Below are positions 9,159 through 41,672 of a stretch of DNA of 64,000 nucleotides, in pieces. The DNA is from an uncultured Clostridia bacterium (GTDB lineage: Bacteria; Bacillota; Clostridia; TANB77; CAG-508). The position numbers and the translations under genes are program-made. The notes beneath the pieces were generated by a model. The model had not been told where the DNA came from, ran no database searches, and saw only the letters and a list, made by a program, of their open reading frames with translations. The DNA is taken from assembly GCA_948857205.1 (NCBI GenBank), contig CAQPRV010000041.1:9313-73312 (forward strand), in the 5' to 3' direction. Each line of letters opens with the position of its first letter. Within the stretch, counting starts at the first letter, position 1.

Positions 9159-9373
9159 AAAAGTTACTAATATCCTTAATTGAAATATATCAAAAAAATA
9201 TATCAATATGGATTGAAAGTAAAAATATACATTGCAAATTCTATCCAACCTGTTCAGAATATACAAAACAAGCCATAGAAAAATATGGAGTAGGGAGAGG
9301 TATAGCAAAAGGAATTGCAAGAATAATAAGATGCAATCCTTTCACAAAAGGCGGGTATGATCCGTTAAAATAG
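9155..9373 (+). CDS. yidD: membrane protein insertion efficiency factor YidD
   Basis: 72 aa, CKFYPTCSEYTKQAIEKYGVGRGIAKGIARIIRCNPF…GGYDP; 4-nt overlap with rnpA. Confidence 0.85.
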   Translation: MKKLLISLIEIYQKNISIWIESKNIHCKFYPTCSEYTKQAIEKYGVGRGIAKGIARIIRCNPFTKGGYDPLK

Positions 9374-9393
9374 ATTTAGGAGGAACAAAATAA

Positions 9394-10275
9394 ATGTTTC
9401 AATTTTTGGCAAACATTTTTGGATACTTATTAGAATTACTATACAATCTAGTTAACAACTATGGTATAGCCATAATATTATTCACAGTAATAATAAAATT
9501 ATTATTATTACCATTATCAATAAAACAACAAAGAACAACTAAAAAAAGTGCAGAATTGCAAGAAAAGATGAAAGCAATACAGTTCAAATATAAAAATGAT
9601 CCAGAAAAAATGAATCAAGAAGTAATGAGCTTATATAAATCAGAAAATATGAGTCCATTAAGTGGATGTCTAACAGCAATAATACAATTTTTATTGTTAC
9701 TATCAATATTTTATTTAGTTAGAAGTCCATTAACCTATATGGAGAAAATACCAGTAGATAACATAAACAACTATGTATCACAACTACAAGAAGAAGGACA
9801 AACAGTAAGTAATGTTTATCCTGAGATTTACTTAATAAGAGAATATGGAAAATTAAAAGAAAAAAATCCAGAAGATCCTAATATAGAAAAAATAAACATT
9901 AAAATGAACTTTTTTGGCTTAGATTTAAGCAAAATACCACAACAAAACATGGGAGATTTCACAGTATATATAATTCCAGTTTTATATATAATATCATCCT
10001 TTGTATCAATAAAAATGACTACAAAACAACAAGAAAAAGTTAGAAAAGAAAGCAAGAAATCAGTAATAGACGCAGAAACAGGAGAAGAAGTAAAAGAAGG
10101 AAATAATGAAATGGATGCAGTAATGCAAACAAATAAAATGATGTCTTGGATGATGCCAATAATGTCTATTTCAATTGCTTTAGTTGCACCTTTAGGCTTA
10201 GCTTTATATTGGCTAATAAACAATATACTTATGATAATAGAGAGAACAATATTAGACAAATTCATAAAAGACTAA
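9394..10275 (+). CDS. yidC: membrane protein insertase YidC/OxaA/SpoIIIJ
   Basis: 293 aa polytopic; conserved position after rnpA/yidD; …PLGLALYWLINNILMIIE. Confidence 0.9.
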   Translation: MFQFLANIFGYLLELLYNLVNNYGIAIILFTVIIKLLLLPLSIKQQRTTKKSAELQEKMKAIQFKYKNDPEKMNQEVMSLYKSENMSPLSGCLTAIIQFLLLLSIFYLVRSPLTYMEKIPVDNINNYVSQLQEEGQTVSNVYPEIYLIREYGKLKEKNPEDPNIEKINIKMNFFGLDLSKIPQQNMGDFTVYIIPVLYIISSFVSIKMTTKQQEKVRKESKKSVIDAETGEEVKEGNNEMDAVMQTNKMMSWMMPIMSISIALVAPLGLALYWLINNILMIIERTILDKFIKD

Positions 10276-10288
10276 AGGAGGATATAAA

Positions 10289-11008
10289 ATGGAAAACAAA
10301 ATTATTGCAGAAGGAAAAACAACTAATGAAGCCATAGAAAATGGACTAAAAATCTTAAAAGTTTCAAAAAACAAAGTAAATATAAAAGTATTAGAAAATG
10401 AAGAAAAAAGAAGTTTCTTTAGTATATTAGCTCCAAGAGTTGTAAAAGTAGAATTAACCTTAAAAGAAACAGAAAACAACGAAACAAAAAGCGAAAACAA
10501 AAACCAGAAAGAAAAGAACATCAAAAATACAATAGAATTAGCAGAAGAAGAACAAACTAAAGCAAAAGAGAATATAGAAGAATTTATAAAAGTTTTAATT
10601 GAAAAATTACCAGAAGATATAAAATATTCTATAAATAGTGACAAAAATGGCCTAAAAGTAGAATTAACAGGAGAAGATATAGGATATTTAATAGGGTATA
10701 GAGGAGAAACCTTATATGCTATTCAAAATATTTTGTCATCAGTAGCTGGAAAAGGGATTAAAAATAGAGTTAGAGTAATTTTAGACATTGAAGGATACAA
10801 AAATAAAAGAGAGAAAACACTAGAAGATTTAGCAAAAAAAGTTGCATACACTGTAATAAAAAATAAAAAACCTGTAAAATTAGAACCTATGACAGCATAT
10901 GAAAGAAAAATTATTCATAGTATATTACAAGAAAATAATAAGGTTGAAACAAATAGTGTTGGTGAAGAACCACATAGAAGAATTGTAATTTCTTTAAAAA
11001 ATAAGTAA
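10289..11008 (+). CDS. jag: Jag/KhpB-type KH+R3H RNA-binding protein
   Basis: 239 aa, C-terminal R3H (…YERKIIHSILQEN…VETNSVGEEPHRRIVI); conserved position after yidC. Confidence 0.85.
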   Translation: MENKIIAEGKTTNEAIENGLKILKVSKNKVNIKVLENEEKRSFFSILAPRVVKVELTLKETENNETKSENKNQKEKNIKNTIELAEEEQTKAKENIEEFIKVLIEKLPEDIKYSINSDKNGLKVELTGEDIGYLIGYRGETLYAIQNILSSVAGKGIKNRVRVILDIEGYKNKREKTLEDLAKKVAYTVIKNKKPVKLEPMTAYERKIIHSILQENNKVETNSVGEEPHRRIVISLKNK

Positions 11009-11377
11009 ATATGTATTAAAATCAGAGGTCAAAGGTCGGATTTTACTATTAATGTAATATCTATTTTTGTCTTCTTTTTTTATATAATGGAGAGTCATAC
11101 TTTCATATTGTATAAAAAGCTACAATCTTTCTAATTACTTTACTATATTATATATTTTAAATTAATTATGAATGTAAACGTAAGCATAGTACAAATTCTT
11201 AAGTTAACAGATGGGAGAATCTCAAACTTGCTTTGAGAGGGGCCTATTTGTTAATTATAGAATTTGTATATGATGAAGTGCAACCGAATAATTAATTTAA
11301 AATATATAATATAGTAAAGTAAAATTAAATAACAAAATAAAGGAGGGAAAAGATATATAAGTTATATATCGTAAAAT

Positions 11378-12749
11378 ATGGATACAATTGCATCAATATC
11401 TACAGCACCACGGAATTGGAGGAATAGGAATAATAAGAATGAGTGGTGAAGATAGTTTTAAAATACTAGAAAAAATCTTCAAGCCAAAAAACAAACAAAA
11501 CTTAGAAGAAATAAAAGGATATAGAATAAAATATGGAAACATAGTAGCTTCAGAAAAGGTAATTGATGAAGTATTAGTTTCGTACTTCAAAGCACCAAAA
11601 AGTTACACAACAGAAAATATGTGCGAAATTAATTCACATGGAGGAAATATTATAGTAAAAGAAATATTAGAATTATGCTTAAAAAATGGTGCAAGACTTG
11701 CAGAGCCAGGGGAATTTACAAAAAGAGCCTTTTTAAATGGAAGAATAGACTTATTACAAGCAGAATCAGTAATAGACATAATAAATGCAAAATCTAAAAA
11801 AGAAGTTAGAGAAGGAATAAAACAATTAGAAGGTTATCTTTCAAAAGAAATAAAAGAAATAAAACAAGAAATAATGGATGTAACAATAAATATGGAAGTG
11901 TCTATTGATTATCCAGAATATGATGTAGATGAAGTTACAATAAATCAAATATCTAACATGATAAACAGAGTAGAAATGAAGTTAAGGAAGTTAGAAGAAA
12001 GCTTTGAGAATGGAAAAATAATAAAAGAGGGAATAAAAACAGTAATATTAGGAAAGCCAAATGCAGGTAAATCATCTTTATTAAATGCTATATTGAAAGA
12101 AGAAAGAGCAATTGTAACAGAATATGAAGGAACAACAAGAGATACCATAGAGGAATTTGTTACTATAAAGGGAATCCCCTTGAAACTAGTAGATACTGCA
12201 GGTATAAGAAATGCAAAAGACGAAGTAGAAAAAATAGGAATAAAGAAATCGAAAGAGTTAGCAGAACAAGCAGATTTAATAATAGCAATATTTGATAGTT
12301 CTAAAGAATTATCAAAAGAAGATATAGAAATTTTAGAAATTTTAAAAAATAAAAAATCTATTATAATTTTAAATAAAATTGATTTAGAGCCAAAATTAAA
12401 CGAAGAGACTTTGGAATTAAAAGAATTAAATAAAAAGATTATTAAAATATCAGCCTTAAATAATATAGGAATAGAAGAATTATATGATGAAATAGCTAAT
12501 TTATTTAATTTAAATGAAATAAATTTAGATAATGAAATAGTGATAACAAATTTACGTCATAAAGCTTTAATATCAAAAGCTTTAGAAAGTATATCAAAAA
12601 CAAAAGATGCTATAACAAATAATATGCCAATAGACATTATATCAATATTTATAAAAGATATTTTAGAGAATTTATCAAATATTACAGGAGAAATAGTAAG
12701 TGAAGATATAATTGATGAAATTTTTGCTAAATTCTGTTTAGGAAAATGA
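11378..12749 (+). CDS. mnmE: tRNA modification GTPase MnmE (apparent 1-nt frameshift near codon 12)
   Basis: Hallmark N-terminus MDTIASISTAP is in the frame starting at ATG 11378 and stops after 23 codons. The rest (GIGGIGIIRMSG…G-domain GKPNAGKSSLLN…C-term CLGK) is in the +1 frame, which the track opens at TTG 11388. Confidence 0.85.
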
Positions 12750-13096
12750 TAAATTAGCACGAGAATCGAAAATAAGCAATTTTATAATATTAGGAATATA
12801 ATTTCATATAAGAAAAATAAAATTCATAAAATAAGGAATTTGAAAGGTAAGATATAAAAAACTAAAAAATAGATTTAAAAGTGTAAAAAACAATAATTTA
12901 CATAACAACAAAAACTAAAAAGTAAAATTAAACGTAATTTAAAAATAAAACACTTAAGGGCTAAATTTAGCTTATATCACCTGTAAAGTGATTATTTTAA
13001 ATGAAACTTAAAAGTAAATATATATATATATTACAAAAAAACACTAATTCTTGTTTCACGAGGAAAAGTAAAAAACAAAAAAAGAGGGAGAAAAAA

Positions 13097-14989
13097 ATGA
13101 GTTATTATGCAGGAGAATATGATATAGCTGTAGTTGGAGCAGGACATGCAGGATGTGAAGCTGCTTTGGCAGCTGCAAGGTTAGGAATGAAAACTTTAAT
13201 ATTTTCTATTAGTTTAGAAGCTATAGCAAATATGCCATGTAATCCACATATTGGAGGAAGTTCAAAAGGACATTTAGTTAGAGAAATTGACGCCTTAGGT
13301 GGAGAAATGGGAAAGAATATTGATAAGACTATGATACAAATAAAAATGTTAAATACTTCAAAGGGTCCAGCAGTACATTCTTTACGAGCACAAGCAGATA
13401 GAAAAAGATATCAAGCAGAAATGAAACATACCTTAGAAAAACAAAAAAATCTTGAAGTAAAACAAGGAGAAATTGTAAATGTAGAAGTCAAAGATGGAAA
13501 AATTGTTTCAATAGAAACAGATGTAGGAGCAATATATAAAGTTAAAGCAGTAATATTAGCTACAGGTACATACTTAAAGGGGAAAATATTTATAGGGGAC
13601 TATTCGAAAGAAAGTGGACCAGATGGAGTAGCAGCTGCAAATCAACTATCAAATTGTTTGAAAAATATAGGAATAGACTTAGTTAGATTTAAAACAGGAA
13701 CACCAGCAAGAATAAATAAAAAAAGCATAGATTTTACAAAAATGGAAGTTCAAAAGGGAGACAAGGGGATAGAAGCCTTTTCTTTTGAAAATGAACCAAA
13801 AGAATTTGAACAAGTAAATTGTTACTTAACTTATACAAATGAAAATACTCATAAAATAATTAAGGAAAACTTACACAGATCACCATTATATGCGGGTGTT
13901 ATTGAAGGAACAGGACCAAGATATTGTCCGTCAATTGAAGATAAAGTAGTTAGATTTAGTGACAAGCCTAGACATCAAGCCTTTGTTGAACCAGTTGGAT
14001 TAGATACAGAAGAAATGTATATACAAGGAATGAGCTCGTCTTTACCAGAAGATGTACAAATAGCATTATATCACACAATACCTGGACTAGAAAAGGCAGA
14101 ATTTACAAGACCAGCCTATGCAATAGAATATGATTGTATAGATCCATCAAACTTAAAATTATCTTTAGAATATAGAGGAATAGAAGGTTTATTTATGGCA
14201 GGTCAAATAAATGGAACTTCTGGATATGAAGAAGCTGCATGTCAGGGATTAATGGCAGGAATAAATGCAACACAAAAAATAAAAGGAAAAGAACCAATAA
14301 TTTTAGACAGAACACAAGGCTATATAGGTGTACTAATTGATGATATTGTTACTAAAGGAACAAAGGAGCCATATAGAATGATGACTTCAAGAGCAGAATA
14401 TAGATTATTATTAAGACAAGACAATGCAGATTTAAGACTAACAAAAATAGGGTATGAAGTAGGCTTAATAACCAAAGAAAGATATGAAAAATTTATAACA
14501 AAAAAAGAAAATATAGAAAAAGAAATAAAAAGACTTAAAGAATTGACTGTTAAACCAACAAAAGAGGTGAATGAATTACTTAAAAAATATGGAACCTCAG
14601 AACTAACTACAGGAACTAAAATGTCTGAACTATTAAAAAGAACAGAATTAGATTATAATAAACTTGAAGAAATAGACAAAGAAAGACCAAAACTTAGTAG
14701 ACAAGAAAGAGAAGAAGTGCAAATACAAATAAAATATGAGGGATATATAAAGTTGCAAGAGGAACAAGTAGAGAAATTTAAAAAACTTGAGAAGAAAGTA
14801 TTACCAGAAGATATAGATTACGAAAATTTAAAAGGGATATGTTTAGAAGCAAGACAAAAACTTAATAAATATAAACCACACTCAATTGGTCAAGCATCAA
14901 GAATATCGGGAGTTTCTCCAGCAGACATATCAGTACTATTAGTATATTTGCAACAAATAAATCAGGAAAGAAAAAAGGTTGAAAAATAA
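13097..14989 (+). CDS. mnmG: tRNA uridine 5-carboxymethylaminomethyl modification enzyme MnmG (GidA)
   Basis: [30 protein letters not shown] (FAD fold) with RBS AGAGGGAG. The track ORF starts 32 codons upstream at a low-complexity ATG. Confidence 0.95.
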
Positions 14990-15062
14990 TTATAATTTTG
15001 GTGTCATTATACTGCATTTAAAATTTAATTCTTTTCGAACCACATTTGTACCTTAGGAAGGA

Positions 15063-15800
15063 ATGAAATTAAAGATGGATAAAGAAGAATTTGAAAATAT
15101 CTTAAAAAAAACTTCAAAAGAAATAAATATAGAGCTAAAAAAGGAACAAATAGAAAAATTTTTTCAATATATGAAATTATTATTAGAATGGAATGAAAAA
15201 ATAAACTTAACAACAATAACAGATCCAAAAGATATAATATTAAAACACTTTATAGACTCGTTAACAATACAAAAGTATATAAAAGAAAATTCATATTTAG
15301 TAGATGTTGGCACAGGAGCAGGATTTCCAGGCATACCTCTGAAAATATATAGAAAAGATATAAAAGTAGTGTTATTAGATTCTTTAAATAAAAGAATAAA
15401 CTTCTTAAACGAAGTATGTAAAGAGTTAGAACTAGAAAATATAAGTGCTATACATTCAAGAGCAGAAGAATTTGCTAAAAATAAAAAATATAGAGAAAAA
15501 TTTAATGTTGTTACCTCTAGAGCAGTAGCCAATTTAAGTACTTTAACTGAATATATGTTACCTTTAACAAAAATAGGAGGTATATGTATCTGTATGAAAG
15601 GAAAAGAGATAGAAGAAGAATTAAAGGATGCCAAAAAAGCTATTTGTGTTTTAGGAGGAACAGTAAAAGAAAAAAGAGAATTTTTTCTAAAGGGTGAAGA
15701 AAGAATATCAAGAAATATTATCTTATTAGAAAAGATAAAAACCACCCCTTCTAAATATCCTAGAAAAGCAGGAATGCCAAGTAAAGAACCATTAAAATGA
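15063..15800 (+). CDS. rsmG: 16S rRNA (guanine527-N7)-methyltransferase RsmG (GidB)
   Basis: 245 aa, SAM-MTase motif DVGTGAGFPGIPLKI; conserved mnmG-rsmG synteny. Start may be the Met 4 codons in. Confidence 0.9.
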   Translation: MKLKMDKEEFENILKKTSKEINIELKKEQIEKFFQYMKLLLEWNEKINLTTITDPKDIILKHFIDSLTIQKYIKENSYLVDVGTGAGFPGIPLKIYRKDIKVVLLDSLNKRINFLNEVCKELELENISAIHSRAEEFAKNKKYREKFNVVTSRAVANLSTLTEYMLPLTKIGGICICMKGKEIEEELKDAKKAICVLGGTVKEKREFFLKGEERISRNIILLEKIKTTPSKYPRKAGMPSKEPLK

Positions 15801-19208: not shown

Positions 19209-19298
<90 letters not shown>

Positions 19299-19354
19299 AA
19301 ATAAGTTAGATATAATGCATAGAAAGATATATCTAACTTTTATTTATAAAAAAT

Positions 19355-19444
19355 GTAGGTGTACCCAAGTGGTGAAGGGGGCAGTTTGCTAAACTGCTAG
19401 GTCTCGTAAGGGGCGCGGAGGTTCGAACCCTCTCACCTACGCCA
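19355..19444 (+). tRNA. tRNA-Ser (anticodon GCT), class II with long variable arm
   Basis: GTAGGTG…CACCTAC acceptor, anticodon stem-loop GCAGT-TTGCTAA-ACTGC, long variable arm, GGTTCGAACCC, GCCA end. Confidence 0.85.
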
Positions 19445-19652
19445 AACCATTATTTTATATTGTAACTTTTTATATTTTTCAATAAAAGGAATTAAAGAGA
19501 ATTAAGAGTAAAAAAATAGTAAAGAATAAAAAGTACAAAATATATTCCTATGACAGTAAATTTATAATTTCTATAATTAAATTGTAAAGATATCTAAAAT
19601 GTAGTATACTATGTGTAGTGTACTACATTTTAAGTATTGGAGGGAATGTAGA

Positions 19653-19787
19653 ATGAGTGAGAAAGTATATAGTATAGAAGAAATATTTAACAAAAACATA
19701 GATGGATTTGAAAAATCAGAAATTGAAGAAAATTCAAAAATAGATAAAGAAATAAAAAAGACAGGAGTAGTAGTTTATGAAAAGTAA
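19653..19787 (+). CDS. small acidic protein (44 aa) directly upstream of hepT-like gene; possible non-canonical partner
   Basis: ATG with RBS GGAGGG; preceded by near-palindrome ATGTAGTATACTATGTGTAGTGTACTACAT (19598-19627); 22 nt before next gene. Confidence 0.35.
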   Translation: MSEKVYSIEEIFNKNIDGFEKSEIEENSKIDKEIKKTGVVVYEK

Positions 19788-19809: not shown

Positions 19810-20121
19810 ATGATAGAATATATAGATAAATCAATAGTATATACAGAAGGTTATACATTTGAGGGATTTTGTAATGATAGTAAAACTGTAGATGCAACAG
19901 TATTTATTATTAGTCAAATAGGACAATTAATTAAAAATATTTCAAAAGAAACTATGGAAAAATATTCTAATATAGAATGGAACATGATAAAAAGTTTAAG
20001 AAATAGAATTGTTCATAATTATGAAGGAATAATTTTAAAGAGTGTATGGCATGTAGTAAAGGTAGATATTATAGAATTAAAAAAAGAAATACAAAATATT
20101 ATTGAAACAGAAAAAGATTAA
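19810..20121 (+). CDS. HepT/DUF86-like (HEPN-fold) toxin-family protein
   Basis: 103 aa; Rx4HxY motif in RNRIVHNYEG; size and motif placement typical of DUF86. Confidence 0.6.
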   Translation: MIEYIDKSIVYTEGYTFEGFCNDSKTVDATVFIISQIGQLIKNISKETMEKYSNIEWNMIKSLRNRIVHNYEGIILKSVWHVVKVDIIELKKEIQNIIETEKD

Positions 20122-20415
20122 TAAATAAGAGTTTTAGTGAATTTTTAAGTGATAAATGGAAAATAACTAGATTTTTACTTTTTTAGTCGAAAGCTCAAAT
20201 TGTGCAAGAACAAATTAAGGATGAATCTTTGATATTTCTTATTTTTTATTAAAATAAAAAGAAGTTATATTATATTTAGAAAGCTAATAAAAATAATTAA
20301 TAATGGAGATAAATAGCTAAAACGTTAAGATATAAAAAACAAAAGTTATTAATGAGTATTGAACAAAGTCGAAAAAAGAGATATAATTAAATAAAAAGGG
20401 ATAAGGAGAATTAAT

Positions 20416-21717
20416 ATGGTAAGAAATATAAAAAGGTTTATTTTTATTTTGTTTTTTTTAATACTATTTATATTAATAAATTCTTGTAGTGTAAATGCAG
20501 AAGGATTAGATACAACAAATCCAAGTTCATATCCAAAAGGTACAAAATTTAAATTAAATAAAGATGCATATAATTATACAATTGAGAAAACATTATGGTG
20601 GAAAAAAGCAAAAAAGGATCCAGAGGATAAATTTAGATTTAAGAAGGGTGAAATTGTTGAATATACTGGTGAATATGAAACAGACGTTGAAGTAGCACAT
20701 TTTGGAATGCCAACATACTATTTCGAAGTAAAAAAAGGCATAACAAAAGGACTAATATGCAGTAAAGATTTAGACTTATATGAATCAACAAGACCAGCTA
20801 CAATAACAGAGTTTATTAGTAAATATGGAATAGCTAGCATAAAAGAAGAAAAAGAATTAAATTCAAAAATAAAAGAGTTATCTGAAAAAGCTACATCTGC
20901 TGGATATATTGATATTGATAGTTCACTAGCATATATAGATAATAATATACAGATGGTACAAGGCTATCCATCAAGAGAAGAACAAAAAAAACAAGTAGAA
21001 AAAGATTATAAAAATTTATGTAATGATACATTAGCAGTTGATGGGGATTATGCATTTTTAGCACAAGCATATAAATATGCTGCATATTATCAAGAACTTT
21101 TAACAATGGATGAAGAATATGGAAAAGATGACGGAAAAGATAAAGACTGGGGAGCTGAATTTGATAAAGCATATAAAAAATACAAAAGTGCTGGTAAAGA
21201 TGATACAAAGAAAAATGCAGCATTTAAAATGATGGCAGAAGCTATGGAAAACATGTCACTAGAAGAAAGAAAAGAAAAGGTTGATGGAAAGAAAAGAAGT
21301 GATAAGTGGGGAGAAATTGTTGATGAAGAAAATGACAGAAAAGAAGTAATTGAAGCAACAGAAAGTGAAATATATAAACAACCTAAAAGAGTATCATCAG
21401 CGAGCACTTCAGAACAAAGTATAGATGATATGGTATCAGATGCAGATAGTTTTTTAAAAAAAGGTAGCCTAAAATATGATGAAAGTGCCCTACAGGGATT
21501 TTCACAAACAACATATAATATATTACTAACGGTGGGAGTATTTGTAGCAGTTATTGTAGGAGGAGTAATAGGAATAAAACTAATGACATCAGGAGTAGAA
21601 GAAAAAGCAGAATATAAAAAAATGTTATTAATTTATTTAATAGGATGTCTAGTAATGTTTGGTGGATTTGTAGCATGGAAATTTATTGTAAATATGATGC
21701 AAAATATATGGGGGTGA
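20416..21717 (+). CDS. secreted protein (signal peptide + ~350-aa soluble domain) with C-terminal two-helix pilin-like module
   Basis: N-term MVRNIKRFIFILFFLILFILINSCSVNA. C-terminal …VGVFVAVIVGGVIGIKLMTSGVEEKAEYKKMLLIYLIGCLVMFGGF… shares the loop GxEEKAEYKK with the three downstream small genes. Confidence 0.55.
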   Translation: MVRNIKRFIFILFFLILFILINSCSVNAEGLDTTNPSSYPKGTKFKLNKDAYNYTIEKTLWWKKAKKDPEDKFRFKKGEIVEYTGEYETDVEVAHFGMPTYYFEVKKGITKGLICSKDLDLYESTRPATITEFISKYGIASIKEEKELNSKIKELSEKATSAGYIDIDSSLAYIDNNIQMVQGYPSREEQKKQVEKDYKNLCNDTLAVDGDYAFLAQAYKYAAYYQELLTMDEEYGKDDGKDKDWGAEFDKAYKKYKSAGKDDTKKNAAFKMMAEAMENMSLEERKEKVDGKKRSDKWGEIVDEENDRKEVIEATESEIYKQPKRVSSASTSEQSIDDMVSDADSFLKKGSLKYDESALQGFSQTTYNILLTVGVFVAVIVGGVIGIKLMTSGVEEKAEYKKMLLIYLIGCLVMFGGFVAWKFIVNMMQNIWG

Positions 21718-21721
21718 TTAA

Positions 21722-22271
21722 ATGAGAAGAAAAATAATTACAGTTATAACAATTATAACCATTTTATTTTTAGTAATTTCTTTAATACCAATATATTCAG
21801 AAGCTGCAAAAGCTGGAAGTGCTTCAAGTGGAAAAGGAAGTTCTAGTAGTAGTTCCACAACAGGAAAGAAAGGCTCAGGAGGAGCAACAGTAGGAAGTTC
21901 ATCAAGTATAGAAGGAGGAAGTACTACAACAGAAGAAGGTATATATACTGGTCGGAAGTAAAGAAGATGATTCATTTGAAGAAGGAGGAGAAGAATTAGG
22001 ATTAGGAGATCTTGACAATTATAAAGGAAAAGCAAAAACTCCGAAAAAAGCACAAGAAAAAGTTGAAAAAATGTTAGGATATGTACAAATAGTAGGTACA
22101 GTATTATCAGTTATAATATTAATGATAATCGGATTCAAATATATGTTAGGAAGTATAGAAGAAAAGGCTGAATATAAAAAGACATTAATTCCATATATTA
22201 TAGGAGCATTTATGTTATTTTCTGGTAGTTTAGTGCCACAGATAATTTATCAAATTGCACAAAATATATAA
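21722..22271 (+). pseudogene. pilin-like paralog split by +1 frameshift (signal peptide/Ser-Gly linker in one frame, two-helix core in the next)
   Basis: ORF 21722-21961 (signal peptide + SSGKGSSSSSSTTG…) stops at 21959-21961. The +1 frame is open from 21912 and runs into ORF 22071-22271 (…MLGYVQIVGTVLSVIILMIIGFKYMLGSIEEKAEYKKTLIPYIIGAFMLFSG…). That downstream ORF lacks its own signal peptide and RBS-proximal start. Confidence 0.5.
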
Positions 22272-22387
22272 AATTATGTAAAAAAGGTAATAAAATTGTT
22301 GCAAAAAGTAAAATTTAATGTTATCCTATTAATAGAAGAATATATATTAATGCGAGAAAATAGTATTAAATAAGGAGGAAATAAAAC

Positions 22388-22756
22388 ATGAATAAAAAAA
22401 TGATAAAAATAATAAAAATAATTGGTATAATTTTAATAACCTTTGCATTAGTTACTATATCAGTAGATTCATTTGCTCTAAAACCACCAAATCAAATAGA
22501 ACCAAATACATCAACAGAAGGAGGTAAAGCAGTATCAAATATTGGTAGCAGTATTATGGGAATATTGCAAACTACTGGTATAATTGTATCAGTGCTTATA
22601 TTAATAATTATAGGTATAAAATACATGATGGGAAGTGCAGAAGAAAAAGCAGAATATAAGAAGGTAATGATACCATATTTAGTAGGAGCAGCTTTAATAT
22701 TTGGAGCATCTGTAATTGCAAATGTTGTATATCAATTCTTTTCTAATTTGAAATAA
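22388..22756 (+). CDS. pilin-like small membrane protein (signal peptide + two hydrophobic helices; VirB2/TrbC-like architecture)
   Basis: 122 aa; SP …SVDSFA; GILQTTGIIVSVLILIIIGIKYMMGSAEEKAEYKKVMIPYLVGAALIFGASVIANVVYQFF; RBS AAGGAGG. Confidence 0.55.
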   Translation: MNKKMIKIIKIIGIILITFALVTISVDSFALKPPNQIEPNTSTEGGKAVSNIGSSIMGILQTTGIIVSVLILIIIGIKYMMGSAEEKAEYKKVMIPYLVGAALIFGASVIANVVYQFFSNLK

Positions 22757-22790
22757 TAAAACAAAATAGTCTAATAAGGAGGAAAAAAAT

Positions 22791-23189
22791 ATGAATAAAA
22801 ATGTAGTAAAAATATTTAGTATTATTTTAATGTTAATAACATTAATTTCCATATCGGTAAATTCATTTGCGGCAGGAGTTGGTAGTGCTAGTGGTTCTGG
22901 TGGTGAAACAGTTACCAGTCCTGGGGAATTAAAACCTAAAGCAGAAGTAAAAGGTGAAGATGAATTAATGCAACTTGGAGGAAATGTAATGGGAATATTA
23001 CGAACCACAGGTATAGTAATTTCAGTACTTATATTGATAGTAATAGGTATAAAGTACATGATGGGAAGTGCGGAAGAAAAGGCAGAATACAAGAAAGTAA
23101 TGATACCATATTTAGTAGGTGCAGCATTAATATTTGGAGCATCAGTAATATCAACTGTTGTATTTGAATTCTTTACACATTTAGAATAA
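22791..23189 (+). CDS. pilin-like small membrane protein, paralog
   Basis: 132 aa; SP …SVNSFA; identical core GIKYMMGSAEEKAEYKKVMIPYLVGAALIFGASVI; RBS AAGGAGG. Confidence 0.55.
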   Translation: MNKNVVKIFSIILMLITLISISVNSFAAGVGSASGSGGETVTSPGELKPKAEVKGEDELMQLGGNVMGILRTTGIVISVLILIVIGIKYMMGSAEEKAEYKKVMIPYLVGAALIFGASVISTVVFEFFTHLE

Positions 23190-23196
23190 TAAAAAT

Positions 23197-23232
23197 AAAG
23201 AGGACAAAAATAAGTTTTGTTCTCTTTATTAC
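23197..23232 (+). terminator. rho-independent terminator after pilin-like genes (AAAGAGGACAAAA…TTTTGTTCTCTTTATT)
   Basis: 12-bp stem with one mismatch, followed by T-rich run. Confidence 0.55.
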
Positions 23233-23377
23233 ATTTATATTACATTACAGTTGTATTACAGGCATATTAAAAATATATTATTTTGTCTTTTTTTGCTCAA
23301 AAATGTTACAATTATTGAGCTTTTTTGTTATAATTAAATATAAGAAGAGTTATACAAAAAAATAAGGAGGAATAAAA

Positions 23378-23743
23378 TTGGGAACATATAATTTACCAAG
23401 AAATGTAAAAGGAGAAGGAAGAATATTATTTATATTCTCAACAAAAGCATTAATATATAGCCTAATAGGTGTGGCTATTGGACTAATATTTTATTTTATA
23501 TTTAAAACAATTGGAACTAGTTTTATAGGAGTCATTTGTGTATGTGTATGTGGACTAATTGGATTTATTATTGGTACATTCAAAGTTCCTGATTCAACTG
23601 CATTTGAAATTACTAAAAAGACAGGAGGAGAAAACATAGATGAAGTAATAAAAAGAGCAATTAGATTTAAAATGAAAAAAAATAGAATATATGTGTATAA
23701 ACAAGAAGAAGTAGAGAAAAAGGAGGTAACAAAAGATGACTAA
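23378..23743 (+). CDS. small two-TM protein, VirB3/ConD/PrgI-like candidate
   Basis: 121 aa, two adjacent TM helices (…LIYSLIGVAIGLIFYFIF…FIGVICVCVCGLIGFIIGTF…), immediately precedes VirB4-like gene region; RBS AAGGAGG. Confidence 0.45.
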   Translation: MGTYNLPRNVKGEGRILFIFSTKALIYSLIGVAIGLIFYFIFKTIGTSFIGVICVCVCGLIGFIIGTFKVPDSTAFEITKKTGGENIDEVIKRAIRFKMKKNRIYVYKQEEVEKKEVTKDD

Positions 23744-24974
23744 TGAGGAAATCTCTCAAATACTAGTAATGATATTAAGTATAATGTTTGTTATTTTGAT
23801 TACGTTATGTGTAATATTTTTAATGTTAAAGATAAAAGAGAAAAAACAAAAAGAGGAAATTGAAAATGCCTTTAATGATAAAACAGGAAACGAGCTAAAA
23901 AAGAAAGAACTAAATAAAATAGATAGCACTTATAGTAAACAATCAATTATAGATTTTATGGAATTTGATAAAATTGAAGACAACATGATTATACAAAAAA
24001 AAGGAAAGAGATTTTTAATGGTTGTAGAATGTCAAGGTGTTAACTATGACTTAATGTCAAACACAGAAAAAGTAGGTGTTGAAGAAGGATTTCAACAGTT
24101 TTTAAATACATTAAGACACCCAGTCCAAATATATATACAAACTAGAACAATAAACTTAGAAAATAGTATAGAAACATATAAAAAGAAAATAAAGGATATT
24201 GAAGATGCATATACACAAAAATTATTTGAATATAGAACAATGCAATCATCTGGAATATATTCTAAAAAAGACTTAGATAAAGTATATTTTGAAATAACAA
24301 AACAAAAAAACTTATTAGAATATGGAAAAGATTTAGTAGCTAATACAGAAAAAATGAGCTTAAACAAAAATGTATTAAATAAAAAATACTATATTATAAT
24401 TCCATATTTTCCAGAAGAAGCAGTAGATGGAAAATACATATATGAAGAAGTAAAAAATATGGCATTTTCTGAATTATATACTAAATCACAATCAATTATT
24501 AGAACATTATCATCATGTTCTATAAACGGAAAAATATTATCTTCAAATGAGTTAGTAGAATTACTATATGTAGCATATAACAGGGACGAATCAGAAGTAT
24601 TTGGAATAGATAAGATATTAAAATCAGGATATGAAGAATTATATTCAACAGCTCCAGATGTATTTGAAAAGAAAATAAAAGCATTAGATAAAGAAATAGA
24701 AGAAAGAGCAATAGACTTAGCAAACGAGACTATAGAAAAAGTAAAATCAAAACCACAACAAATAGCAGAAACAAAACAAGAAGATTTAGAAGAACTTGTT
24801 AGGAGAATGGCAGAAATTATATTAAGTGAAAACAAAGAATATGTTGGTCAAGAAATTGCAGACCAAGCTATAGAAGAAATAAGAAAAACAGAAGAAGAAG
24901 GAGGAGAAGAACAGAATGAAGAAGTCAAAGAAACAACTAAAACAACAAGAAGAAAGAGAGCAACAACAAAATAA
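23736..24974 (+). CDS. membrane-anchored T4SS accessory protein (single N-terminal TM, Lys/Glu-rich)
   Basis: 412 aa; 8-nt overlap with upstream gene (translational coupling); no enzymatic motif seen. Confidence 0.4.
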   Translation: MTNEEISQILVMILSIMFVILITLCVIFLMLKIKEKKQKEEIENAFNDKTGNELKKKELNKIDSTYSKQSIIDFMEFDKIEDNMIIQKKGKRFLMVVECQGVNYDLMSNTEKVGVEEGFQQFLNTLRHPVQIYIQTRTINLENSIETYKKKIKDIEDAYTQKLFEYRTMQSSGIYSKKDLDKVYFEITKQKNLLEYGKDLVANTEKMSLNKNVLNKKYYIIIPYFPEEAVDGKYIYEEVKNMAFSELYTKSQSIIRTLSSCSINGKILSSNELVELLYVAYNRDESEVFGIDKILKSGYEELYSTAPDVFEKKIKALDKEIEERAIDLANETIEKVKSKPQQIAETKQEDLEELVRRMAEIILSENKEYVGQEIADQAIEEIRKTEEEGGEEQNEEVKETTKTTRRKRATTK

Positions 24975-26886
24975 ACAAGAGCCAGGTTTTTTAAGAACAA
25001 AAACTATTAAAGAATTAATAGCACCATCTGGGATAGATGTATCTAAAATAGATCATTTAGAAATAATCTCTAATGTTAAAAGATATGCACGTAGTTTCTT
25101 TATTTCAAATTTACCACGTATGTGTACTTTTCCAGATTTATTTAGAGATTTATATATGTTTGATGATATTAATACATCAATATATATAACACCAGTTGCA
25201 GAATCAAGATCACAAAATGAATTAAACAAAGTAATAAATGAATTAGAGACAGAAAGAATTGTTGCAGCAGATAGAGGAAATATAAACAGAGAAAGTACAT
25301 TAGGTCAAAAGAGATATGAAGCAGAACAACTAAGAGATCAAATAGCAGCAGGATTTAATAAAATGTATGAAGCATCAATTATATCTACTTTATTTGCATA
25401 TAGTTTAGAAGATTTAGAAAGATTAACAAAATTACTTTCAGCAGAAATGTCAAAATCACTAGTTGGAATAAAAAGTGCATGGGCAATACAAGAAGAAGCT
25501 TTTAAATCAAATTTACCACTAATGAATGATGACATAAAAAAGATACACTCTTTTGATAGTAGATCAATGGGGACAGTATTTCCATTTACTACTTCGGAAG
25601 TAGGACATCCAACAGGAATACCATTAGGATTTAATAAACAAACAGGAACACCAATATTGTTTGACAATTTCCATCCATCTTTAAGCAATTATAATATGGT
25701 TATATTTGCTAAATCTGGTGCAGGTAAATCTGTTACAATGAAAACTTTAATATCAAGATCATCTGTATTAATGGGAATAGAAAGTTTAGCATTAGATGCA
25801 GAAGGTGAATACACAATAGTTGCAGAAAGCTTAGGAGGAATTAATGTTGTATTAAGTCCAAATTCAAGTACAGTTATTAATCTGTTTGATATAGAGCCAG
25901 AATCCGTAAAGGATGCAATTACAGGTAGAGAAAGAACAGCTTTAAATGTAGAGAATAAAGTTGAAGACGTTACGCAAGCACTACTTACAATGGCAAGAGG
26001 TAGTACAAGAAGTACAGAAGTAAACGAGTTAACAAAACAAGTTATAGCAGAAACAGTAGCAGAAGAATATGCTAGCTTAGGAATAACAAACAATCCAAAT
26101 AGTTTATATCAATCAGGTGATGAATTACAAAAGGGAGACTTATTATATAAAAGAAAAAAAGAAATGCCAACAATAGGTAGCTGGTATAAAAGATTGCAAA
26201 ATAAGGCTAGAGAAAATAAAAATCCAGATTACCAATTCCATTTTAGTTATTTATTAAAAGTTATGAAACAATATATTAGAGAATTTAATGGGCAAATGGC
26301 ATATTTTGATGGACAATCTACATTTGAATTATTAGATGGAGCACCGTTTATTAATTTAGATATTTCTCAATTGGAAGAAAGATTTGCAAGACCACTTGCT
26401 CAACAAATACTTCTTTCTTGGATTTGGGAGAAATATGTAAAGAAAAATAGTGAAGATAAAACAAAAGCTAGAAAGAAAAGGGTATTAGTTGATGAGGCTT
26501 GGATGTTATTACCATATCCAGAAGCAGTAGACTTTTTAAATACTATGGCAAGACGTGCAAGAAAGAGAAATGTATCATTAGCTATTGTTTCACAAAGATT
26601 TCAGGACTTTTATGAGAAACCAGAAGCACAAGCAGTTTTAACATCATCAGATACAAAACTATTTTTAGCACAAGATAAGTCTGAAATAGAATATTTAAAG
26701 TCAGTATTTAAGTTAAGTAATGGTGAAGCAGGATTTTTAATAACTTGTTTAAAAGGTGAAGGATTGTTAAAAGTAGGTGCAGATACTGCTATTATACAAA
26801 TAACACCTACTGCAAAAGAGTTTGAATTTGTTGAAACAAATTTAAATAACTTGGTAAAGATGAGAAAGAGAGCAAACAATATTTAA
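24916..26886 (+). CDS. VirB4/ConE/TcpF-family type IV secretion ATPase
   Basis: 656 aa; Walker A …MVIFAKSGAGKSVTMKTL…; Walker B …KRVLVDEAWMLL… (DEAW typical of VirB4); RBS GGAGGAG. Confidence 0.85.
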   Translation: MKKSKKQLKQQEEREQQQNKQEPGFLRTKTIKELIAPSGIDVSKIDHLEIISNVKRYARSFFISNLPRMCTFPDLFRDLYMFDDINTSIYITPVAESRSQNELNKVINELETERIVAADRGNINRESTLGQKRYEAEQLRDQIAAGFNKMYEASIISTLFAYSLEDLERLTKLLSAEMSKSLVGIKSAWAIQEEAFKSNLPLMNDDIKKIHSFDSRSMGTVFPFTTSEVGHPTGIPLGFNKQTGTPILFDNFHPSLSNYNMVIFAKSGAGKSVTMKTLISRSSVLMGIESLALDAEGEYTIVAESLGGINVVLSPNSSTVINLFDIEPESVKDAITGRERTALNVENKVEDVTQALLTMARGSTRSTEVNELTKQVIAETVAEEYASLGITNNPNSLYQSGDELQKGDLLYKRKKEMPTIGSWYKRLQNKARENKNPDYQFHFSYLLKVMKQYIREFNGQMAYFDGQSTFELLDGAPFINLDISQLEERFARPLAQQILLSWIWEKYVKKNSEDKTKARKKRVLVDEAWMLLPYPEAVDFLNTMARRARKRNVSLAIVSQRFQDFYEKPEAQAVLTSSDTKLFLAQDKSEIEYLKSVFKLSNGEAGFLITCLKGEGLLKVGADTAIIQITPTAKEFEFVETNLNNLVKMRKRANNI

Positions 26887-26896
26887 GGAGGAAAAA

Positions 26897-29800
26897 ATGA
26901 AGTTTTTTACTAGAAATGGTATTATACATAAGATAATAATTTCAGTTTCAATTGTATTAGTAACAATTTTTTCAGTTCCACAACGTTCTTATGGTGGTTT
27001 TGCAGAAGCTCTTGGAAGTACGTTATTAAAAGAATTACTTCAATTAGTTTCTGTTGCAGGAGATATTGCTATGGGATTACTAAATAGTGTTATGCTTGGA
27101 ACAGATGGTGTAGGATCAGCAATGTTACCAAAAGATGATGTTAACTTAAAAAGTGGTAGCGGTTCTTGGTTATATTTAAGTAATAAATTGGCAAATAGTG
27201 ATTATGATTATGTATTTGAACCAGGAAGAATTAATACAAAAGCATTTAAAGGAACAGAATATGAAATTCCAAATATGTTATATTCACCAGAAAACATTTT
27301 TGCTAATAAGATAGCTGCATTAGATGTTAATTTTTTGAGAAGGAATGAGTATCAAGAAGTAACAGGTTCTAAATCAGCTATAGAAAAATCAAGATCAGCT
27401 GCTGGAAAGTTAAGTAATATTATTTCTTCATGGTATAAATCCTTTAGAAATATAGCAATTGTTGGATTATTGTCAGTATTAATTTATCTGGGTATTAGAA
27501 TTACAATTAGTTCTACAGCTGTTGATAAAGCAAAATATAAAGAAAATATGAATAATTGGTTTGTTGCATTATGTCTTGTATTTGTAATTCACTTTATTAT
27601 GTCAGGTATTTTAATGTTAACAGATAAGGTTACAGAAATATTTGATACAGAGATTAATAATGGAATAAAAATAAAGGAAAGTGGAGAAAACATTGCATTT
27701 AAAACAAATTTAACAGGTTTAGTAAGATTTAGAGCTCAATCTTCTGATGTACAAGAGGTAGCAGCATATACTGTAGTGTATGTAGCATTAGTATTTTATA
27801 CATATAGATTTACATTTCTTTATTTTAAGAGATTCTTATATATGGCCTTTTTTACAATGATAGCACCATTAGTTGCATTAACATATCCAATTGATAAAAT
27901 GGGAGATGGACAAGCACAAGCATTTAATTTGTGGTTTAAGGAATACACAATGAATGCGATAATTCAACCAGTACATCTGATTTTATATACTGTATTTGTA
28001 ACATCTTCTGCTGAATTAGCACAGGAAAATGTTATATATGCATTAGTTGCAATAGGATTTTTAATTCCAGCAGAGAAGTTTATTAAGAGCATGTTTAAAC
28101 TTGATAAAGCTTCAACACCAAGCGGATTGGGATCATTTGCTGGAGGTGCTTTAGCAATGCAAGGATTGAATAAATTAGGTTCACTAATGGGTGGAGGACA
28201 TAAGAAAGGAGGATCTTCTAATGGTGATGATTCAGGTTCATCAGATTCATCTGATAGAAGAATAAGAATGCAAGAAAGACCTACTTTAGGAAGCTTTGGT
28301 GGTGATTCAGATGACGAAGATAATAATAATGATGGTAATGATAACGATGATTATGGAATGGATTATTATCAACATGATGGACAGGATGATGGTGAAGGAG
28401 ACGATTATGATGATTCAGATATTGATATGATAGATCCACCAATTGAAGAACCAGAGCCTTATTTTGAAGGTCAAGACGAAATGGATAGATTAGGAGAGGA
28501 ATTAGATCAATATGATAATAATGATATATATATGAATCCTGAACTAGGTGCTAAACAGATGAGATATCAAGAGTTAGATGCACAAAAAAGGCAATGGCAA
28601 GAAGATCAAGAACGACAAAATGAAGAGCAAATGGAAGATCAAGAGGAAGAACAAGGACAAGCACAATTAAATGTACCACCACGTGGTTATGACCCAGCGA
28701 TAGGAGAAGAACAAAATCCTGAACCTGAAGAAGATTCTGATATTAATGCAGATCAAGGACCTCAAGAGCTTCCAGGATGGAAGAAGAAATTGGCAATAAA
28801 AGGTGCTAAATCATTAGCAAAGGGTACTTGGAAAGCTACTAAAGGTATTACTAAATTTGGTTTATCTACAGCAGGAACAGTAGCAGGAGCAACGATAGGA
28901 TTTGGAGCAGGAATTGCAACAGGAGAAGGTGTATTTAAAGCTGCTCAATATGCTGCAACAGGAGGAGCATTTGGTAGAAGCTTAGGTAAAAATGTAGGAG
29001 GATTAGTTGATAAATTACCAAATAATCCATATAGATCTGCTAAAAATGCTAAAAATAAAATAATTGATAAAAAGAACGATATTAGAGAAATGATAAATGA
29101 GCAAAAATATGGCACAGGATATGCTAGACAACAAAGAGCGATAGAAAATAATGAATTAGCAAAAAAAGACTTTATGAATAATAAAAAAGAAAAAAGTAAA
29201 TATCAAGATATGGCAGCAAGAATTTATAATAATACAGGAAAGAGTTACAGTGCAAAAGATTTAATGAATGCAAGTTATGATTATCAACAAGCAGGAATTA
29301 CAGATGAAGATGATATTGAAAGAGGATTAACATTAGAAGCAAACCATGGTGGTATAAACGGAGATTATCATCAAAAGACGGTAGATGTTATGGACTTTGC
29401 AAGATCACAATCAGTTAAAAAAGATTCAATTACAGATGAAAAGAAACGTACAGCACTTGAAGGTGTAGTACAAAGTAAGGTAAGAGGAACTTCAAATCAA
29501 TTAGAAGTTATGAATTCATTAGCAGAAGCATACGGATTAGGAGATTACTACAAAAAAGTTGGAAAAATAGGAAAACCTGCTACCCCACCACAACAAACAT
29601 CTCAAACAGGAGCACAAGGGCAAGCTGGATCAAATGAAAATGGAGGAACATCAAGATCAGGAACACAGAGACCAACAGGAACAAGGGGAAGATCAAGAGG
29701 TTCAGGAACACAAAGACCAACTGGATCAAATGAAAATGGAGGAACATCAGGATCAGGAACACAGAGACCAACAGGAACAAGAGGAAGACCAAGAGGTTCA

Positions 29801-29956
29801 GGAGCACAAAGACCAGCTGGAACAGGTGGAAATACACAACCAACAGGATCACAAAATCCAACAGGAGCAAATAGAAATGGAAATCCAGCAGGGACATCAA
29901 CATCTCAACCAAATGGAGGAGCACCAACTGGCTCTAATGGAACGTCAGCAGAATAA
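26897..29956 (+). CDS. VirB6/ConG/TcpH-like polytopic membrane protein with long acidic + Gly/Thr/Gln/Arg-rich disordered C-terminal tail
   Basis: 1019 aa; multiple TM segments in residues ~170-390; acidic block DSDDEDNNNDGNDNDDYGMDYY…; C-terminal tandem peptide repeats NENGGTSxSGTQRPTGTRGRxRGSG encoded by an 89-90-bp direct repeat (29631 / 29720). Confidence 0.6.
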   Translation: MKFFTRNGIIHKIIISVSIVLVTIFSVPQRSYGGFAEALGSTLLKELLQLVSVAGDIAMGLLNSVMLGTDGVGSAMLPKDDVNLKSGSGSWLYLSNKLANSDYDYVFEPGRINTKAFKGTEYEIPNMLYSPENIFANKIAALDVNFLRRNEYQEVTGSKSAIEKSRSAAGKLSNIISSWYKSFRNIAIVGLLSVLIYLGIRITISSTAVDKAKYKENMNNWFVALCLVFVIHFIMSGILMLTDKVTEIFDTEINNGIKIKESGENIAFKTNLTGLVRFRAQSSDVQEVAAYTVVYVALVFYTYRFTFLYFKRFLYMAFFTMIAPLVALTYPIDKMGDGQAQAFNLWFKEYTMNAIIQPVHLILYTVFVTSSAELAQENVIYALVAIGFLIPAEKFIKSMFKLDKASTPSGLGSFAGGALAMQGLNKLGSLMGGGHKKGGSSNGDDSGSSDSSDRRIRMQERPTLGSFGGDSDDEDNNNDGNDNDDYGMDYYQHDGQDDGEGDDYDDSDIDMIDPPIEEPEPYFEGQDEMDRLGEELDQYDNNDIYMNPELGAKQMRYQELDAQKRQWQEDQERQNEEQMEDQEEEQGQAQLNVPPRGYDPAIGEEQNPEPEEDSDINADQGPQELPGWKKKLAIKGAKSLAKGTWKATKGITKFGLSTAGTVAGATIGFGAGIATGEGVFKAAQYAATGGAFGRSLGKNVGGLVDKLPNNPYRSAKNAKNKIIDKKNDIREMINEQKYGTGYARQQRAIENNELAKKDFMNNKKEKSKYQDMAARIYNNTGKSYSAKDLMNASYDYQQAGITDEDDIERGLTLEANHGGINGDYHQKTVDVMDFARSQSVKKDSITDEKKRTALEGVVQSKVRGTSNQLEVMNSLAEAYGLGDYYKKVGKIGKPATPPQQTSQTGAQGQAGSNENGGTSRSGTQRPTGTRGRSRGSGTQRPTGSNENGGTSGSGTQRPTGTRGRPRGSGAQRPAGTGGNTQPTGSQNPTGANRNGNPAGTSTSQPNGGAPTGSNGTSAE

Positions 29957-29976
29957 TAAGAAAGAGGGCAGAAACC

Positions 29977-40464: not shown

Positions 40465-40543
40465 GTTTTTTAGTTAACACTTTTTAGTTATGCAAAAATA
40501 AAAAATAATTATATTTTTTGTGTATAAAAAAAGTAGTAAGGAA

Positions 40544-40571
40544 TTGCCAAAATTCTCCGTCCCTAATGGCA
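40544..40571. repeat. palindromic unit type 2 inverted (TTGCCAAAATTCTCCGTCCCTAATGGCA), right end of second MITE-like element
   Basis: ~40 nt upstream of patatin-2 GTG; 79-bp spacer to left unit. Confidence 0.6.
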
Positions 40572-40612
40572 CGATTTCTGTTTTTTTTCATATTTTATTA
40601 TGGGTGATTTAT

Positions 40613-41600: not shown

Positions 41601-41631
41601 AGAAAAATTATATATTTGAGTGTAATATAAA

Positions 41632-41656: not shown

Positions 41657-41672
41657 TCTAAATATTTTATTG

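Follow-up and report, generated by a model that had tools for sequence, protein, structure and literature searches.

VirB2-family pilin genes open a candidate origin-proximal type IV secretion locus in uncultured gut Clostridia

Four tandem genes for two-helix membrane proteins, one of them joined to a large secreted domain, lie about 12 kb from the chromosomal replication origin (oriC) of an uncultured Clostridia bacterium and raise the question of what machine they serve: a conjugation system in transit, or one that belongs to the chromosome of its host. We addressed this question in a 64,000-nt stretch of that genome (contig CAQPRV010000041.1, positions 9,313 to 73,312 of the forward strand; hereafter the window, in whose coordinates all positions are given), where an original prediction, made without database searches, had described the genes as pilins of the VirB2/TrbC type and had implied a conjugative element around them. 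The assignment to the pilin family was supported, and we estimate at roughly 60% the probability that the genes form the leading operon of a type IV secretion system (T4SS) of the monoderm (MPF_FATA-like) kind that resides near the origin and is not accompanied by a relaxase. The best reading of this system is a Bacillota variant of a T4SS type described so far only in Patescibacteria.

The pilin genes and their shared module

The pilin operon comprises the following features, all on the plus strand, with the genes sorted into the paralogue classes described below:

20359..20387, plus strand: promoter-like site TTGAAC-17-TATAAT before the operon (a consensus match only; the regional count of such sites is not above that in shuffled sequence)
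20416..21717, plus strand: class A pilin, 433 aa, with signal peptide, beta domain, helical domain, disordered linker and VirB2-like hairpin
21722..22271, plus strand: class B pilin, frameshifted by a 1-nt insertion near 21953
22388..22756, plus strand: class C pilin copy 1, 122 aa, with AAGGAGG in front
22791..23189, plus strand: class C pilin copy 2, 132 aa; 55/66 core residues match copy 1, and the mature N-terminus differs
23194..23230, plus strand: terminator-like hairpin with a 16-bp stem at the end of the operon

Aligning the four C-terminal modules (~75 residues) revealed 17 invariant columns, including E-E-K-A-E-Y-K-K, and a 126-nt core could be followed through the four DNA copies at 61-73% identity, from which we conclude that the genes are old paralogues and neither recent duplicates nor chance resemblances. 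The two class C genes share 78% DNA identity across 276 nt. The open reading frames (ORFs) and the alignment bear out the architecture initially proposed, namely four tandem paralogous modules with a signal peptide and two helices, one of which is fused to an ectodomain. The loop had been given as an invariant GSxEEKAEYKK; its EEKAEYKK part is strictly shared, whereas the preceding residues are GS(A/I) in three copies and SGV in the 433-aa protein.

According to hydropathy and inspection of cleavage sites, every pilin has a basic N-terminus, a signal-like hydrophobic stretch, an A-x-A-type site and two hydrophobic helices, with putative cleavage at SVNA/E, YSEA/A, DSFA/L and NSFA/A. The AlphaFold model of the 122-aa pilin contains a signal helix followed by a hairpin (residues 44-81/84-119; mean pLDDT 77.6), and together these data yield the predicted signal peptide and two membrane helices that a pilin was expected to have. 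The class A protein carries an N-terminal ectodomain of 350 aa, in which a beta domain spans aa 44-121 and a helical domain 130-316, and ends in the hairpin (aa ~356-432) with the loop SGVEEKAEYKK. An adhesin-like fold, which had been suggested for this soluble part, was not recovered: its structure model gave only weak SH3-like and generic helical-bundle matches. The strong terminator proposed after the last copy was confirmed as far as the hairpin is concerned (-16.8 kcal/mol, z = -6.15), although no clean run of U residues follows the stem.

Family membership was examined with two curated hidden Markov models (HMMs), whose Pfam gathering cut-offs are 27.9 bits for PF04956 (TrbC/VirB2) and 26.6 bits for PF18895 (T4SS_pilin):

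Class A (433 aa): PF04956 no hit; PF18895 22.7 bits
Class B (66-aa fragment): PF04956 27.0 bits; PF18895 32.1 bits
Class C copy 1 (122 aa): PF04956 32.2 bits; PF18895 31.6 bits
Class C copy 2 (132 aa): PF04956 37.7 bits; PF18895 27.1 bits

Both class C copies passed the PF04956 cut-off, with class B just short of it, and 41 of 41 aligned homologues matched both families (best E = 2.4e-13 for PF04956 and 4e-11 for PF18895). Scans of the pilins against Pfam, NCBIfam and PHROGs produced no match to a holin, bacteriocin or phage family, the kind of assignment that had been named as fatal to the pilin call. The search against the TrbC/VirB2 and T4SS-pilin families thus returned scores above the curated cut-offs, and these, with the gene order pilin-PrgI-VirB4, uphold the VirB2/TrbC-type architecture; on this evidence, membership of the four modules in the VirB2/TrbC pilin family is supported.

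The family is widespread. A scan of one genome per species yielded 463 confirmed stretches, several per array, and the best 80 loci (79 assemblies) were analysed; in what follows, L labels denote related genome loci or contigs, and P labels denote protein library representatives without genomic context. The records of the 80 loci are titled Clostridia, Clostridium, Clostridiaceae, Clostridiales, Lachnospiraceae or Bacillota, with the exception of L092 ('uncultured bacterium'), and their sources are human, rabbit, chicken, goat and mouse guts. Arrays of three genes occur in 47 of these loci, of four in 20, of five in 4 and of seven in 1. At the level of 50%-identity clusters the pilin profile matches 5285 representatives, and 4160 homologue clusters were found for the small pilin, every one of them with PF18895 and PF04956; for the 433-aa protein there are 17 homologue clusters among 5.8 billion proteins, and its N-domain is common to only 8 of them.

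The paralogue classes recur across species. Class A forms a distinct cluster by its hairpin core (YNILL...GC..VFGGF..WK), with one gene per locus in nearly all of the 80 and lengths of 121-439 aa, and the 433-aa protein is a class A subunit with an unusually long N-extension. Class B, which carries GLGDLxNYxG before the hairpin, and class C were recognisable in every contig inspected. The mature N-termini vary, and the helices and the loop are nearly fixed: EEKAEYKK is exact in 109 of 279 pilin ORFs and present in a relaxed version in 184. The predicted set in the window is one N-extended class A, one frameshifted class B and two class C subunits. Because the classes are orthologous across species, a set of major and minor subunits is favoured as the meaning of this diversity, and by sequence it appears a better fit than antigenic variation, the other option initially raised, if that is taken to arise by recent duplication, against which the 61-78% DNA identity of the copies speaks.

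Two further arrangements were observed among the relatives. In P0151-P0155, one signal peptide is followed by three to five hairpin modules joined end to end in the same chain (P0151, of 450 aa, has five, each with an EEKAEYK-type loop), and a rabbit-gut metagenome-assembled genome (CANQES01) contains two separate pilin-T4SS loci, L093 and L097, reflecting either two systems or a mixed bin.

Class B had been described as frameshifted, and this proved correct. Its frame 0 stops at a TAA at 21959-21961, and the +1 frame is open from 21912 to the hairpin. The ORF at 21722-21961 (79 aa) encodes the signal peptide and a G/S-rich region; GLGDLDNYKG and the hairpin lie in the +1 frame (21912-22271), with a 66-aa ORF at 22071-22271. 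Removal of the C at 21953 gives a product of 182 aa, which aligns collinearly before and after the break with intact orthologues of 141/151 aa from other loci. The identical lesion was present in three independent assemblies (L013, L014 and L015), one of which differs at 29/2817 positions (~1%), which shows that the frameshift is a real allele of this species and not a sequencing error. No Shine-Dalgarno sequence was found before the ATG at 22071, from which it appears that the class B subunit has probably been lost in this species. A programmed +1 frameshift at AAG-TAA-A that would rescue the gene was also considered and was rejected, because the sequence lacks a slippery site and the orthologues need no frame change.

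The secretion locus and its chromosomal setting

Downstream of the pilin operon lies a second operon that encodes the presumptive machinery:

23305..23334, plus strand: promoter-like site GTTACA-18-TATAAT with an extended TG, before the machinery operon (a consensus match only)
23378..23743, plus strand: PrgI family (VirB3-like) membrane protein with a TTG start (PF12666, 32.0 bits vs 27)
23736..24974, plus strand: VirB4 N-part, TrsD/TraC-like and membrane-anchored, 412 aa (NF045975 positions 46-284, E = 0.0028)
24916..26886, plus strand: VirB4 ATPase part, 656 aa (CD1110-family VirB4, 196 bits; Mbov_0397, 189 bits, positions 279-891)
26897..29956, plus strand: VirB6-like polytopic protein, 1019 aa (weak match to the pLS20_p028 family)
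29977..30924, plus strand: conserved bitopic protein, 315 aa (in 64/80 loci)
30937..34572, plus strand: predicted cell-wall hydrolase, 1211 aa (Amidase_3, with weak lysozyme and NlpC/P60 matches), of putative VirB1-type role
34589..35905, plus strand: membrane-anchored protein, 438 aa (accompanies the cassette in some loci; precedes the pilins in L053, L055 and L091)

The gene order is therefore pilins-PrgI(VirB3)-TrsD-like-VirB4. VirB4 is split, the 412-aa protein matching its N-terminal third and the 656-aa protein the remainder, and the two genes share 59 nt, the ATPase gene being read in the +1 frame; an overlap of 55-59 nt recurs in L001, L004, L006, L009 and L010. Orthologues of the TrsD-like protein carry a precomputed PF26593 TraC-like annotation. 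Residues 170-235 of the VirB6-like protein (nt ~27404-27601), which are its first two membrane helices, form a fifth, diverged pilin-like hairpin with the loop SSTAVDKAKYKEN; it scored 24.3 bits against PF18895, under the cut-off (E = 3.4e-5), and reached a probability of 81% in hhalign (E = 1.2e-5). The C-terminal ~550 residues of the same protein are acidic, G/S/T-rich and of low complexity, with GTQRPTG-type repeats, and account for a local rise of the GC content to 0.36. The 315-aa protein had no match in Pfam, NCBIfam or PDB, and its position suggests a VirB8-type scaffold. PDB sequence-profile searches with alignments of the 315-aa, 438-aa and TrsD-like proteins returned nothing meaningful, and no VirB5, B7, B9 or B10 was recognised among the cluster proteins in the Pfam and NCBIfam scans.

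This arrangement recurs across the clade. Directly after the pilin array, PrgI was found in 77/80 loci and the split VirB4 in 76/80. Of the 54 loci whose upstream flank exceeds 6 kb, 37 have gidA/gidB/parA/parB/DUF4446 directly upstream, and the first pilin gene lies a median of 1.7 kb from parB. The cluster also follows parB-DUF4446 on the metagenome contigs L001, L010 and L011, the last being the 1.59-Mb contig ERZ27273429 contig_4359_polypolish, so that the same oriC-proximal chromosomal site is occupied in many species. VirB4 is 76-88% identical across species, compared with 72-88% for GidA. We regard the cluster as a resident, origin-proximal, clade-wide feature and not as an integrative and conjugative element (ICE).

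The window itself has a GC content of 26-29% and contains the replication origin, around which the genes are arranged as follows:

Leftwards from ~8.2 kb, minus strand: dnaA, dnaN, recF, gyrB
Rightwards, plus strand: rnpA, yidC, trmE, gidA, gidB, parA, parB, DUF4446 gene
Between DUF4446 and the pilins: GNAT gene, then two tRNA-Ser genes (19209-19444), then a HepT toxin gene

The cumulative GC skew has its minimum near 8 kb, in agreement with the oriC gene context, and the pilin/T4SS cluster lies downstream of gidA-gidB-parA-parB-DUF4446. The HepT-like RNase toxin gene (19810-20121), with a small ORF (19611-19787) upstream, stands between the tRNA-Ser genes and the pilin operon. The segment from DUF4446 to the first pilin measures 0.6-6.5 kb, and its contents differ among species.

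Signs of a mobile element were sought and not found. In the Pfam and NCBIfam scans, no ORF at 19.8-43.8 kb matched a relaxase, type IV coupling protein (T4CP) or integrase family; the 3' ends of the tRNA-Ser genes each occur once in the 64 kb and form no att-like repeat; and no pilin relatives were detected in IMG/VR, nor any by tblastn in PLSDB at E <= 1e-3. With the site fixed near oriC across species, these results go against the conjugative-element context that had been implied, and transfer of a mobile element is an unlikely role for the cluster.

The cluster nonetheless has a history of its own. Pairwise identities of VirB4 correlate strongly with those of the TrsD-like protein (r = 0.89) and more weakly with those of GidA (r = 0.42), compared with 0.91 between GidA and ParB. 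Neighbour-joining trees split the cassette into two types (100/100 bootstrap): type A, to which the cassette of the window (20416-35905) belongs, has the long class A gene first, whereas a type B array consists of four small pilin genes, the second of them class A. Housekeeping genes from the flanks give a tree that intermingles the two types, and the split was monophyletic there in 0/100 bootstrap replicates. The clearest case is the pair L029 and L025, whose flanks are 97% (GidA), 99% (ParA) and 100% (ParB) identical, with cassette identities of 38-62% for the pilins, 62% for PrgI, 53% for the TrsD-like protein, 81% for VirB4, 33% for the VirB6-like protein and 32% for the 315-aa protein. 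Flanks this similar around cassette proteins this diverged indicate that the whole cassette was exchanged in place between close relatives. Strictly vertical inheritance of the cluster was rejected by Mantel and tree tests.

Further along the window, a DnaJ-domain membrane protein (36031-36723) precedes two successive gene pairs at 37000-43826, each consisting of a patatin-like phospholipase on the plus strand and a 717-aa RCC1-repeat/FGE-sulfatase-like protein on the minus strand. About 8 kb past the T4SS cluster, an ORF of at least 6592 aa (44223 to beyond 63998, plus strand) runs off the window; it has a signal peptide, a start that looks von Willebrand-A-like by eye and many ~90-aa beta repeats, and is a candidate giant surface adhesin.

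Competing explanations and a possible mechanism

Could the locus be an ICE beside tRNA-Ser, its pilins building conjugative pili for the transfer of the element itself? The two tRNA-Ser genes just upstream, the resemblance of the T4SS parts to Firmicute conjugation systems, a VirB4 that is 41% identical to C. botulinum/C. beijerinckii plasmid proteins with a shared gene order, and a cassette phylogeny discordant with the flanks can all be cited for it. Yet the searches of the window for relaxase, T4CP, integrase and att-like repeats came back empty, the same chromosomal position is used in many species, including loci without a called tRNA gene (tRNAs were not scanned there), the GC content of the cluster equals that of its flanks, and cassettes that were replaced were replaced exactly in place; we therefore consider this explanation improbable. 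The same absence of relaxase and T4CP among the ORFs at 19.8-43.8 kb could instead mark a decaying remnant of a former conjugation system whose pilin genes are becoming pseudogenes, as could the fixed class B frameshift and the fragmentary pilin ORFs in a few other loci (e.g., L098 and L089). Such decay is hard to reconcile with the integrity of all other genes, with a VirB4 as conserved as GidA across species and split in a conserved, non-random manner, and with retention of the cluster in genomes of ~1.6 Mb, which makes it very improbable.

The remaining alternatives concern the proteins themselves. Two-helix hairpins are common, and fold searches return generic hairpins only, so that unrelated membrane proteins (holins, bacteriocin or immunity proteins) might in principle mimic the pilin pattern; this possibility is effectively refuted by scores above threshold for two curated pilin HMMs, by the lack of any holin or bacteriocin family among the matches and by linkage to PrgI-VirB4 in 76-77 of 80 loci. 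A more serious contender is that the VirB2-like proteins are integral-membrane parts of a translocation channel that makes no external fibre. A pilin-like hairpin is contained in the VirB6-like polytopic protein, the three to five concatenated hairpins of some relatives would also suit a membrane ring, the loop and helices are more conserved than the exposed ends, and, according to a review, pilins are required even in T4SSs that make no pili. Bulk structural subunits, however, are typically encoded as the pilins are here, by dedicated genes in several copies that have their own terminator and strong ribosome-binding sites, and variable mature N-termini together with a large variable ectodomain fit exposure at the surface; we see the channel as a genuine possibility but a distinctly minor one.

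Several observations weigh against a resident T4SS with a VirB2-family pilin set. Other parts of the genome could encode a coupling protein or relaxase, and the disagreement between the phylogenies of the cassette and the flanking genes means that the locus moves horizontally in some way. With the class B gene broken, this species can do without at least one subunit. The class A hairpin lies under both Pfam cut-offs, the ectodomain had no recognisable adhesin fold in structure-model searches, and the best NCBIfam match for the four modules, NF045849 (Mbov_0395 pilin-like), reached 16.4-25.2 bits against a cut-off of 40. A PDB sequence-profile search with the pilin alignment found no solved VirB2-type pilin at E <= 10, and Foldseek with the pilin model found only generic helical hairpins at E > 1, e.g., ATP synthase subunit c. 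Because these searches recover no solved conjugative pilin, it is the two curated HMMs and synteny that carry the assignment to the family.

If the resident T4SS is nevertheless the correct reading, we infer the following scheme, which includes the assembly of a filament, the nature of the substrate and what the ectodomain does. The pilins would be exported by Sec, their signal peptides cut, and would reside in the membrane as N-out/C-out hairpins with the EEKAEYKK loop in the cytoplasm. A VirB4/PrgI/VirB6-like complex would then extract them and stack them into a fibre or wall-spanning conduit, for which the hydrolase would open a gap in the wall. Class C would be the bulk subunit, and the single class A subunit would show its variable ectodomain on the fibre or at its end and set partner specificity. 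The likely use would be contact-dependent adhesion to other cells or exchange with them (of DNA or other molecules, by uptake or delivery), as proposed for Patescibacteria.

A broader and more speculative view, which we regard as doubtful, is that gut Clostridia with genomes of ~1.6 Mb carry the equivalent in Bacillota of the essential Patescibacterial T4SS, and perhaps the system from which the latter evolved: a pilus-forming machine passing through the Gram-positive wall, kept by oriC, used for contact-dependent exchange of chromosomal DNA or nutrients, with the cassette types as compatibility or partner-specificity types. The locus bears on the origin of Patescibacterial pilins, on whether a T4SS pilus can cross a thick cell wall and on what abundant, uncultured gut Clostridia with small genomes depend on. 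That cassettes were swapped between chromosomes that are otherwise nearly identical suggests that a surface structure of a gut commensal is under strong diversifying selection.

Comparison with known systems

Pilins of this family are not expected in Gram-positive T4SSs. Guglielmini et al. (2014) reported no pilin homologues in MPF_FATA, the paper on the pLS20 family likewise reported none for its plasmids, and a 2025 nomenclature review states that VirB2 and VirB5 do not occur in Gram-positive T4SSs, Patescibacteria excepted; reviews up to December 2025 agree that VirB2 is missing, with Patescibacteria as the single exception. The premise that classical Gram-positive conjugation systems do without VirB2-type pilins is thus in line with the literature. 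VirB2/TrbC homologues above curated thresholds in a large clade of uncultured gut Clostridia, with the anatomy of the machine as in Patescibacteria, contrast with these reviews. Our literature search found no paper linking such a T4SS to gut Clostridia; the published TANB77 'pilin' belongs to a Tad-type cluster at a different locus (PMC11680825).

Related parts occur on clostridial plasmids and in Mycoplasma. The C. botulinum/C. beijerinckii plasmids (e.g., p12/29, NZ_KT897275), the source of the 41% identical VirB4, share the order small pilin-like, 105-aa, 334-aa, VirB4 and VirB6-like, and their VirB6-like protein contains a PF18895-like segment, as here; they are plasmid-borne systems with a single weak pilin-like gene (PF18895 E = 0.0027, hhalign probability 30%). 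On C. botulinum p12/29, which PLSDB lists as non-mobilizable and whose cluster occupies 9060-15481 (L099), that gene encodes a 127-aa, weakly pilin-like protein with the loop GDNSSEKAKLK. Such sequence matches hint at a wider occurrence of VirB2-like proteins among Firmicute T4SSs than has been published. In comparison with Mycoplasma, whose genes lie on ICE elements going by the NCBIfam model names, the two VirB4 parts jointly tile the Mbov_0397 model, but the pilins, at 16-25 bits vs 40, are not members of the Mycoplasma pilin-like family (NF045849).

With Agrobacterium VirB2 and RP4 TrbC (PF04956), the pilins share a signal peptide, two hydrophobic helices, a short charged loop and a position directly upstream of virB3-virB4; they differ in having no detectable PDB-profile or Foldseek similarity to the solved pilins and in belonging to a cell without an outer membrane. 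Bartonella Trw, whose proposed role is not DNA transfer but the formation of variable, adhesive pili, likewise combines multiple sequence-variable pilin genes with a T4SS that lacks a coupling protein. Trw, however, is a Gram-negative, R388-derived system in which trwL/VirB2 and trwJ/VirB5 were amplified, whereas the copies described here are ancient orthologous classes. Helicobacter ComB and archaeal Ced/Ted use VirB2-/VirB4-like parts without a relaxase for import, and are functional analogies only.

The closest counterpart is the T4SS of Patescibacteria, or candidate phyla radiation (CPR) (Wang et al. 2023; Quinonero-Coronel et al. 2025, PMC12102498). That system is related to MPF_FATA and includes VirB2 arrays of 2-11 genes, PrgI, VirB6 and TrsD, a homologue of the N-terminal part of VirB4; a relaxase is usually absent, the position is close to dnaA, and the T4CP is usually encoded away from the T4SS cluster (PMC12102498). 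The same study left open the origin of the Patescibacterial pilins, considering co-option from diderm systems since MPF_FATA 'lacks' them. The locus in the window shares with it a monoderm host, tandem diverse VirB2-like genes recognised by PF04956/PF18895, PrgI/VirB3, a TrsD-like protein beside VirB4, a VirB6-like protein, lytic enzymes by virB4, no relaxase in cis and a chromosomal position close to dnaA/oriC. It differs in its host, an uncultured Clostridium according to the NCBI record titles, and in pilin cores that are far more conserved than those of CPR arrays, which average 25% identity. It differs further in that one subunit carries a large variable ectodomain and a VirB1-type hydrolase of 1200 aa is always in the cluster.

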